Source: Cirrosporium novae-zelandiae
Taxonomy: Eukaryota
Length of the DNA: 64,000 bases
Reading direction: 5' to 3'
Assembly (NCBI GenBank): GCA_026023565.1
Contig: JAPETS010000028.1
Location: 1-64,000 of the forward strand
Numbering within the stretch: the first letter of the stretch is position 1; each line of letters begins with the position of its first letter. The notes under the pieces were generated by a model. It had not been told where the DNA came from, did not search any database, and saw only the letters and a list, made by a program, of their open reading frames with translations. This document shows, piece after piece, positions 10,643 to 13,674 of this stretch. A program made the translations under genes and the position numbers.

Positions 10643-11587
10643 TCACATGAAATCATCAAGGAAATCCGTCCCTCTATCCTGGTTACTGCTTGCTTCCATA
10701 TTTTCCTCGGAGAAGAGGTCGTCGTATGCATGGTCCTTCTCATACTTCAGCTTCCTTCGATTATCCATTTCTCTTTTCTCCTCCTTGCGCCTCTTTTCTT
10801 CCATCTGCCTTTCCTTCCTTCGTTTGTCCTTGAGATGCGCCTCCTTCTCCCCAGCAAAGTCGGGAGTCTCATTCGTTACTCGAGTCTTGTTCAAGCGATT
10901 GATGATAGCGTTTTCGCGAGTTGCGATGTGGGTTCTTTTCACGAGTGCTAAATTGTAAAAGGAGACAGCACCTGTCGCCATGGAAGAGTCTTTGTGTAAG
11001 TTCGAGTGTGGCGTATAGACCACTGTTATATTGTCTTTCTTATTCCCTAATAAAAGGGTCAGACTAAGGTTCTGCGTAGTAAAAAAAGTATAGTATAATT
11101 CAGCATGCATTTGAGTACCTTCAATCGAATTGGCTTTGGTCAGCTGCGCACAGTCTTTGAGGAGCGCATCTGGAATAGTTTCCCATGACTGATCTTCGCG
11201 AAGGCGGAGATAAATATGCGCGCTCGATAGTTTATCAACGTGAAACTAGGAGAAATATTCGTTTGTCTGAGGCCACTTCATGAGGAGGCGATAGGAATTT
11301 TGAGGGAAATTTAAGATACGAAAGCAATAGAAGGTCATACCCTAGAGGACGGACTTCGTCAGTGAAACTTTATATAAACTAAGGCGAGTAAAATATATTT
11401 ACCAGACATCTTCCTCCCAGCCATATTTAATTAGGTCCTCATCTGCAACGTATCAATTATATCAGCTGAGAGGATAAGGTAGGTTAGCTATCAAAAGACT
11501 CATTCCTCACTTACTCTCTTCCTTGTCCCTGCCAACATATATTTCAGCAGCAGGCGAGATCACACTAGATTTGAAATAATAGACCAT
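10643..11587 (-). CDS. CCDC25/Jlp2 (DUF814, NFACT-R) protein, 5 exons: 11587-11515, 11442-11403, 11341 (1 nt), 11245-11119, 11046-10643
   Basis: MVYYF..[58 protein letters not shown]..DDFM*. The frame closes only with a single-G exon between two GT-AG introns. Confidence 0.88.
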
Positions 11588-12422: not shown

Positions 12423-13674
12423 CTAATGCATCTGATTGATATATTTCTTCGCTTTCTCGAAGATATAGAAGAAAACAGCATTTTGCACACCCGTTCTAGC
12501 CAAAGACACACCGAGTCCCTTATAAGAAGACTTTGCACCGATTCGAGCAACTTCTGCCGCCTTCGTCTTGCCCAAGAGCTTCGATTGAGTGCGAGTCTTG
12601 GTCGTATCCAGCGCATAAGTGACCGACCAGGAAATCATGCCAGAAAGACAACCGGCAATGGACACAGGTACACCTTCGACAGCAGATTTCATTTCCCAGA
12701 AGGCGGTGAGGCCGTGCTTAGCACTTTCATATACGCCAAAGTAAATGGCGGTGCCAATGGTGTCACGAACTATTCCGTTAGATAGTGTCTGAAACTATAA
12801 TATGGGGAAAACTTACCCAAATGTAAGCGTAAGCCAGAGTAGAGACCACCATATCCATGTTGGCGTACAATCTCCTTTAAGGTTGCAGAAGTAGCCATAC
12901 GGGGCGGTGGTTTCCCGTTGAGATGTCTGTTCTCAACAGCAGTACCCTTCACGTGTCTTTCTACAAGAGTCGATGTCATCGAGACATTTCTTGCAAGTTC
13001 GAATGGGCCTAGATAATCCATATATTAATATATGCAGCAATGATATTAGAGCTGGTGGCACTTACAAGCAACAAATGCGGACATGAACCCAGAAACCGCG
13101 CCAGCGGCCGCAAATGTAGTAAATGTTGTAGCATTAGGCCAAGTACCAGGAGTATTAACGACCGTTAGTGGAGATTGACCAGTAACTCTCTCGACTGTGT
13201 CGGAGAGGGAATATTTTGCTTCTTGGTAGATCGTCATGCTGATAAGGCGCACAGTTCCAATAGAAATCAAGGGCGGTATCACACCTAGGCATTAAGAAAC
13301 CTCAGTAAATGAAGAGACAACTGCTAGTGGTACAGACCAGCCCAGAAACCCCTAATTCCTTCATGTTTATAAATGAACGAAGCGCAAGCCGTAGCATTGC
13401 GAAACTCGGCACTGAGCTTAGTTAACTTTGGATAGCCTGCCATAGAGCCAATGCTACCAACCTCTGCATGCGAACTTTAATGTTTTCGAGAGGAGACTAA
13501 GAAATATGAGTTTCGCTGAAGAAAAGACCAGCTAATTCAAGGCTTTGGGTGGGTGATTCATACAGTAGTAAGTGTTGCTCCGGTCGCTGCTAACAAAGAA
13601 GCATACTGAGTGCGAAACTTCTTAGCATTCTCACTAGCTTTGGAGCCTTGAGGAGATGTCTCTAGCGAAGCCAT
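12423..13674 (-). CDS. Mitochondrial carrier family (SLC25) protein, carnitine/ornithine/YMC-like; 6 exons: 13674-13564, 13496-13462, 13411-13338, 13284-13066, 13008-12817, 12769-12423
   Basis: Carrier signatures PLENIKVRMQ, EGIRGFWAG, CPFELAR, GLYSG, RDTIGTAIYFGVYE, YALDTTKTR. An alternative in-frame upstream ATG lies at 13803. Confidence 0.85.

Follow-up and report, generated by a model that had tools for sequence, protein, structure and literature searches.

The closest published counterpart of the locus described here is the one-nucleotide exon of the Fusarium P450 gene CYP621A, for which Nelson and Syed (2026, PMC12940212) present 20 orthologues (24 genes in their Discussion), an AGGGT core and 18 public reads. 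As that report sets out the case, the candidate exon that we describe in the CCDC25/Jlp2 gene of Cirrosporium novae-zelandiae resembles it in belonging to a filamentous ascomycete and in having the identical AG/G/GT core, the G of which fits both splice-site consensuses. In both genes the base lies in a conserved motif, reconciles the intron phases and was missed by automatic annotation, and the Fusarium case was likewise argued from aligned orthologues together with an intron-free relative. The two differ in the gene itself, in the codon position of the base (the middle base of a Gly codon in CYP621A, the third base of a Trp codon in CCDC25), in range (reported within Fusarium/Nectria for the former, spanning several Pezizomycotina classes for the latter) and in the kind of evidence, as CYP621A splicing is confirmed by reads, whereas the CCDC25 exon is predicted here from the comparison of genomic DNA. 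The one-nucleotide exon of Arabidopsis APC11 (Guo and Liu 2015, PMC4674806) is similarly described as constitutive, located between two spliceosomal introns and mis-annotated in databases, and its authors argue for intron definition and for removal of the introns one after the other; it resides, however, in a plant gene and has an A as its single base, and its demonstration was experimental, by means of reporter constructs. In the basidiomycete Coprinopsis cinerea, a long-read annotation reports 13 one-nucleotide exons in 13 genes (PMC12230235), which are also fungal, come with full-length transcripts and break the gene models when omitted; conservation across classes is not among what the passage concerned reports. 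The first-pass annotation of the present locus had counted the Arabidopsis exon as the one known example, a count that the Fusarium (PMC12940212) and Coprinopsis (PMC12230235) reports make outdated. A literature search lying mostly outside the subscription journals yielded no paper on a one-nucleotide exon in CCDC25/Jlp2, whose one-base exon is an unusually widespread example beside those published.

The arrangement had also been likened to fungal stwintrons, in which an internal intron interrupts the donor, the branch element or the acceptor of an external one that becomes functional only after the first excision (PMC5639578, PMC5587772), and whose splice sites are described as pairing by intron definition in Pezizomycotina (PMC5639578). 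The [D1,2]/[A2,3] stwintron (Fekete et al. 2017, PMC5587772; Flipphi et al. 2017, PMC5639578) shares with the CCDC25 locus, in the parts of these reports that describe it, two short U2 introns in direct contact in Pezizomycotina genes, their removal in successive reactions governed by intron definition, intron positions that differ by 1 nt and a confused annotation. The order of removal, however, is forced in stwintrons, whereas either order would work in CCDC25; moreover, the internal introns of the [D1,2]/[A2,3] type overlap by one G, whereas the G in CCDC25 separates the introns and would stay in the mRNA. The likeness therefore stops short of the definition, as both CCDC25 introns are complete in the primary transcript, so that either removal order would give the same mRNA. 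A stwintron reading of the locus was rejected because GT...AG is intact in both introns and no nested arrangement restored the frame upon enumeration. Recursive splicing at ratchet points, which Guo and Liu also mention (PMC4674806), involves zero-length exons (AG/GT); it resembles the CCDC25 arrangement in that an acceptor adjoins a donor and the flanking intronic RNA is removed stepwise, whereas CCDC25 keeps one coding base between the two sites and its introns are tiny, not very long.

The window, i.e., the whole stretch of DNA analysed, comprises 64,000 nt (positions 1 to 64,000 of contig JAPETS010000028.1), and the gene lies on its minus strand. Read directly on that strand, the critical region runs GAT GTC TG / GTAAAT..CACTGAC..CTCTAG / G / GTATGA..CTCCTAG / TTT CAC GTT GAT. 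The predicted features, in the direction of transcription and followed by the rival exon, are the following:

11515..11587, minus strand: exon 1, with the ATG at 11587-11585, ending past base 1 of codon 25
11443..11514, minus strand: intron 1, 72 nt, GTAAGT...GCTAAC...TTGCAG, spliced out in the public model P0001 too
11403..11442, minus strand: exon 2, 40 nt, with the terminal TG (11404-11403) as bases 1-2 of the Trp38 codon
11342..11402, minus strand: intron A, 61 nt, phase 2, GT-AG, GTAAAT...CACTGAC...TCCGTCCTCTAG
11341..11341, minus strand: candidate one-nucleotide exon, G, base 3 of TGG (Trp38), from frame logic and comparison
11246..11340, minus strand: intron B, 95 nt, phase 0, GTATGA...CTCCTAG, removed in both the one-nucleotide-exon and the public models
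11119..11245, minus strand: exon 4, starting TTT CAC (Phe39, His40) and encoding the protein up to ...ANSIEG of the NFACT-R domain
11047..11118, minus strand: intron C, 72 nt, GTACTC...CTGAC...TTATTAG, in frame and stop-free
10643..11046, minus strand: exon 5, with the TGA stop at 10645-10643 and the C-terminus ...DFLDDFM
11341..11353, minus strand: rival 13-nt exon, following an acceptor AAG that ends at 11354; CPSSR replaces W, giving the P0001 translation

The minus-strand sequence places two complete GT-AG introns of 61 and 95 nt on either side of one G, at exactly the coordinates initially claimed. Joining of the five exons yields a 645-nt open frame (214 codons plus TGA) with the motif D-V-W-F-H. 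Translation without the G at 11341 results in a frameshift and a stop at position 73, and retention of either intron A or intron B leads to an immediate stop. The original argument that excision of 11402-11246 as a single intron would shift the frame was thus right as far as it went, but it had overlooked four other GT/GC-AG models that keep the frame, which are considered below. A stop-to-stop ORF at 10643-11245 runs through intron C, because this intron is in frame and stop-free, and so adds 24 spurious residues. Upstream of the gene, ORFs at 12423-13024 of the window (minus strand) resemble a mitochondrial carrier protein by eye. The window also contains an AT-rich block at 25500-64000, with a GC content of 0.075-0.22 per 2-kb bin versus 0.36-0.47 in 1-26000, which resembles an AT isochore of the RIP type, made up of degraded repeats.

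The protein encoded from exon 4 onward matches the Pfam domain NFACT-R_1 (PF05670; E 3e-16, 60.4 bits versus a cut-off of 29.8) and the solved CCDC25 chains 8woh, 7eoe and 7eof (E about 3.5e-12). A protein search retrieved 3335 homologues, the best named of which are CCDC25, DUF814 protein or JLP2. The N-terminus encoded by exon 1 agrees with the family consensus MVYYF...GKDK.EN in an alignment of 48 fungal CCDC25 proteins (alignment A1). The NFACT-R domain, the length of 214 residues (about 210 in the family) and the C-terminal DFLDDFM all place the product within CCDC25/Jlp2. The identity proposed for the gene, together with a conserved Trp, agrees with the D-V-W-F-H of the model and with the presence of W before F-H at every readable metagenome locus. 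Yeast Jlp2 is described in a preprint as a peptidyl-tRNA release factor, in which His44 (His41 of human CCDC25) is essential and reported to be catalytic (10.1101/2025.09.04.673968). His40 within W38-F39-H40 corresponds to this residue by motif, rather than by alignment to the yeast protein, and is invariant in alignment A1 (H44 of row 1). With the His matched in this way to His40, the predicted Trp38, completed by the single G, sits two residues ahead of the reported catalytic His.

Intron A has its own donor, branch element and acceptor, and intron B its own donor and acceptor. The branch-like element of intron A, CACTGAC, is located at 11364-11358 with its A at 11359, i.e., 17 nt before the last intron base, and a pyrimidine-rich stretch, TCCGTCCTC, lies between this A and the TAG acceptor. 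The weak point of the intron is its donor, GTAAAT, with an A at +5. The acceptor of intron A (TAG/G) and the extended donor of intron B (AGG/GTATGA) overlap. The locus combines what characterizes a single-nucleotide exon: complete GT-AG introns one base apart, and a base between them that keeps the frame and restores the conserved residue at the spacing of the family.

Alignment A1 was used to scan a metagenome collection, from which 80 of 533 confirmed relatives were kept. D-[V/I/L]-W-F-H is contiguous in 63 of these 80 loci, and L053 and L056 carry a single phase-0 intron after TGG. In fourteen of the 80, TG and TTY stand more than 100 nt apart, and each of these loci admits one unique TG/GT..AG/G/GT..AG/TTY solution with both parts of at least 40 nt, in which intron A measures 53-90 nt and intron B 48-163 nt. 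L004 and L005 are identical, as are L072 and L073, and L011 and L045 are 92% alike, so that the 14 loci represent 11 distinct lineages. An additional AG/G/GT locus, L018, is 5'-truncated, its contig (positions 1-70) opening inside the core as ...CAG/G/GTATGAGC...GCGCCTAG/TTCCAC, with a CCTAG acceptor. Beyond the splice signals the introns are unalignable (mean column identity of 31%), invariant columns being almost confined to the flanking exons and the intron ends. A strict CTRAY element occurs 8-24 nt before the internal AG in the window and in 10 of the 11 lineages, L021 having a variant only; this range derives solely from the present set of loci. For intron B, a strict CTRAY is found in 6 of the 11 lineages; in the other 5 and in the window it is absent, with near matches only in the latter. 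The check suggested in the first-pass annotation, conservation of the AG-G-GT core across loci, therefore came out in its favour: the same layout, with the same one-base exon between otherwise diverged introns, was found in 11 other distinct lineages as well as in the truncated L018.

Shuffling of the TG-TTY sequence (20,000 shuffles per locus) placed AGGGT with both parts of at least 40 nt in 0.65-5.6% of cases (1.5% for the window), and a suitably placed AGGGT is present in all 13 loci with more than 100 nt at the site. The joint figure of 1e-21 assumes independent lineages, whereas these share ancestry; because of this relatedness, we read the result as conservation under selection and not as independent coincidences. 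Between the closely related L011 and L045, intron B differs by a 2-nt indel (60 versus 62 nt) with AG/G/GT kept, as expected if the sequence on both sides of the G is non-coding. The single introns of the Aureobasidium-like L053 (572-631) and L056 (2669-2728), GTATGG...CACAG, are 59 nt long and located at the position of intron B; these two loci look as if intron A had been precisely lost or never gained.

Public gene models diverge at precisely this site. The best hit of the window, P0001 ('MAG: hypothetical protein M1834_004471 [Cirrosporium novae-zelandiae]'), equals the translation of the 13-nt-exon model letter for letter. Among the best 120 of the 3335 hits, 54 have D-[V/I/L]-W immediately in front of FH[VA]D, which suggests that some annotation pipelines already give the right mRNA, and 66 are disrupted or end early, no later than where exon 4 begins (7 are without FH[VA]D). 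In 16 of the same 120, exactly V-W is missing and D directly precedes FHVD; other faulty models have D-V-C and then an insert with R or Q as its last residue, W followed by read-through (e.g., V-G-F-L), or truncations. Penicillium annotations with W-V-G-F before FHVD correspond to read-through of G+GTCGGTTTCC as in L004, and such read-throughs suggest that the named Penicillium species may share the layout, just as the patterns of mis-annotation suggest its probable presence in Aspergillus too. Near-identical protein pairs differ only at the site, as in Aspergillus fijiensis versus A. aculeatus. P0111, from the Neopestalotiopsis clavispora genome annotation, and P0113 are identical at 211 of 214 positions, with V-W as the sole gap. 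P0113 is an uninterrupted 214-residue protein from a 970-nt assembled contig and reads D-V-W-F-H; given that Sordariomycetes-like genomic loci carry introns in the CCDC25 gene, this contig was taken as transcript-like, which makes it the sole, and an indirect, hint at the RNA level. No cDNA-like contig matching an AG/G/GT locus was found among the 80 loci, the best cross match being 92.8% over 83 nt to an intron-B-only locus. Likewise, a comparison of the last exon of L004 with the protein collection retrieved no same-species transcript (best full-length match 91%, to Penicillium cinerascens; 97% to a 111-residue fragment). The mis-annotation that had been predicted for gene predictors is thus supported, both by the window, whose own public model has CPSSR in place of W, and by the 66 faulty models of the best 120 hits, and the one-base-exon arrangement would be the reason why many gene models of the family are wrong here.

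The alternatives were delimited by enumerating every GT/GC-AG combination, with a minimum intron length of 40 nt, and retaining those that keep the frame and are free of stops. Five models pass in the window: the one-nucleotide exon (V-W-F), the 13-nt exon (V-CPSSR-F), an intron with a GTCTGG donor that deletes V-W, and two poor combinations. V-W-F with the exact spacing of the family results from the one-nucleotide-exon model alone. When the window and 12 loci were considered together, this was also the sole model possible in 13/13; the V-W-deleting model (GTNTGG donor) is possible in 12/13, and the remaining models are each confined to one locus. That a single-G exon builds the invariant Trp, as first proposed, is supported by the AG/G/GT core in 11 lineages and by the full availability of this model. 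The 13-nt and one-nucleotide models both remove intron B, so what separates them is where intron A ends. Exons of a single nucleotide are not generally known to be called by ab initio predictors, and the 13-nt model is for that reason the expected fallback. If the public annotation were nevertheless correct, intron A would end with the AAG at 11354, a 13-nt exon would span 11353-11341, and this species would have CPSSR in place of Trp. Such a structure is canonical GT-AG, keeps the frame and translates into P0001 exactly, but it replaces a residue that is found at every readable locus and lies two positions from the reported catalytic His (10.1101/2025.09.04.673968), its AAG acceptor is located just 5 nt after the branch A of intron A versus 8-24 nt elsewhere, and other lineages have no equivalent solution. 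We regard it as quite unlikely to be the main form, although it could occur as a minor isoform.

The same comparison weakens the V-W-deleting model, in which a single 162-nt intron would run from the GTCTGG donor at 11407 to 11246 and leave a protein devoid of Val-Trp. Although it keeps the frame in all but one of the 13 loci and is how those 16 of the best 120 public models read, its 'donor' is made of the codons for Val and Trp, both retained as coding sequence in all 63 loci without an intron. Moreover, it cannot apply to L048, which has ATA as the codon, leaves the conserved internal AG/G/GT unexplained, and conflicts with P0113, which has V-W where its 99%-identical annotated twin P0111 does not. 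Its junction, GAT/TTTCAC, would be incompatible with transcripts carrying GTCTGGTTTCAC, and we hold it to be very unlikely. The conserved core bears equally on removal of all 157 nt in one step at a non-canonical boundary (TA-AG or GT-TA), again with TGG as the outcome. Because its mRNA would be the same as that of the one-nucleotide-exon model, mature reads cannot separate the two; nonetheless, one-step removal offers no reason for keeping an internal AG/G/GT or a branch element 8-24 nt upstream of it, nor for the invariable presence, directly after TG, of the GT that a donor needs, which makes it highly improbable. A pseudogene or an assembly error, with one base lost at the end of exon 2 and a coincidental AGGGT, deserves mention because the best protein match is labelled MAG and such assemblies do have single-base errors. 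However, the same one-base deficit with AGGGT recurs in 11 other lineages from separate assemblies, and the gene is otherwise intact and of full length, so that this explanation is scarcely credible. The reading favoured by the comparative data is an intact five-exon CCDC25/Jlp2 gene at 11587-10643 (minus strand), in which exon 3 is probably the single G at 11341, flanked by two complete short U2-type GT-AG introns (probability of roughly 0.87). Its core, a real single-G exon that would complete the conserved Trp codon, is supported by the genomic evidence gathered here.

Under the single-G-exon model, each intron is probably recognized across itself, i.e., by intron definition. As the acceptor of intron A overlaps the extended donor of intron B (AG/G/GT), two spliceosomes would be unlikely, on steric grounds, to engage simultaneously, and removal would proceed by two spliceosomal reactions, one after the other. 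The order would not be forced, because either one leaves a normal splice site: with A removed first, intron B would have the donor context TGG/GTATGA, and with B removed first, intron A would have the acceptor context CTCTAG/GTTT. Either order is expected to yield ...GTC TGG TTT CAC..., with Trp38 two residues before His40. We infer that inclusion of the G is constitutive. Pairing of donor A with acceptor B would omit the G and encode a product of 72 residues, the frame ending at codon 73; with this stop located upstream of a further intron, the G-skipped mRNA would probably be a target of NMD.

The distribution of the layout was outlined with a tree of loci that is rough (133 columns), the taxon labels resting on this tree and on the nearest named hits. 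Over the 132 columns available for comparison, the window matches the Cirrosporium protein at 100% identity, and Cirrosporium novae-zelandiae belongs to the class Xylobotryomycetes. L004, L069 and L080 group with named Penicillium proteins (83-91% identity), L004 and L080 in well-supported clades; L015, L021, L060, L079 and L018 fall in a Sordariomycetes cluster, L011/L045 and L029 in a Eurotiomycetes-like cluster, and the intron-B-only loci group with Aureobasidium. L048 joins no assigned group, and L072, which missed the tree pattern, was left out of the tree. We infer that the arrangement is probably old: common to Penicillium-like, Sordariomycetes-like and other Pezizomycotina, it would predate the divergence of at least three classes. 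It is a further, speculative and rather doubtful, idea that the G may be conserved more widely than any other single-nucleotide exon seen so far, being older than the split of Eurotiomycetes, Sordariomycetes and Xylobotryomycetes, and that it persists because its skipping acts as a tunable switch rather than as a frozen accident. If the switch reading were true, the level of the Jlp2 peptidyl-tRNA release factor would be tied to the condition of the machinery for splicing or translation quality.

In practice, numerous public records of a protein that is attracting current interest call for correction. Their errors fall right beside the reported catalytic His and distort, at the active pocket, the alignments, structure models and conservation maps that are built from them. 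The three states found at this site (introns A and B, B only, none) form a series for the loss of abutting introns with positions 1 nt apart. Finally, the layout would offer a natural housekeeping one-nucleotide exon in genetically tractable fungi, where the encounter of two spliceosomes at an overlapping acceptor and donor, their order of action and the frequency of base skipping are testable.
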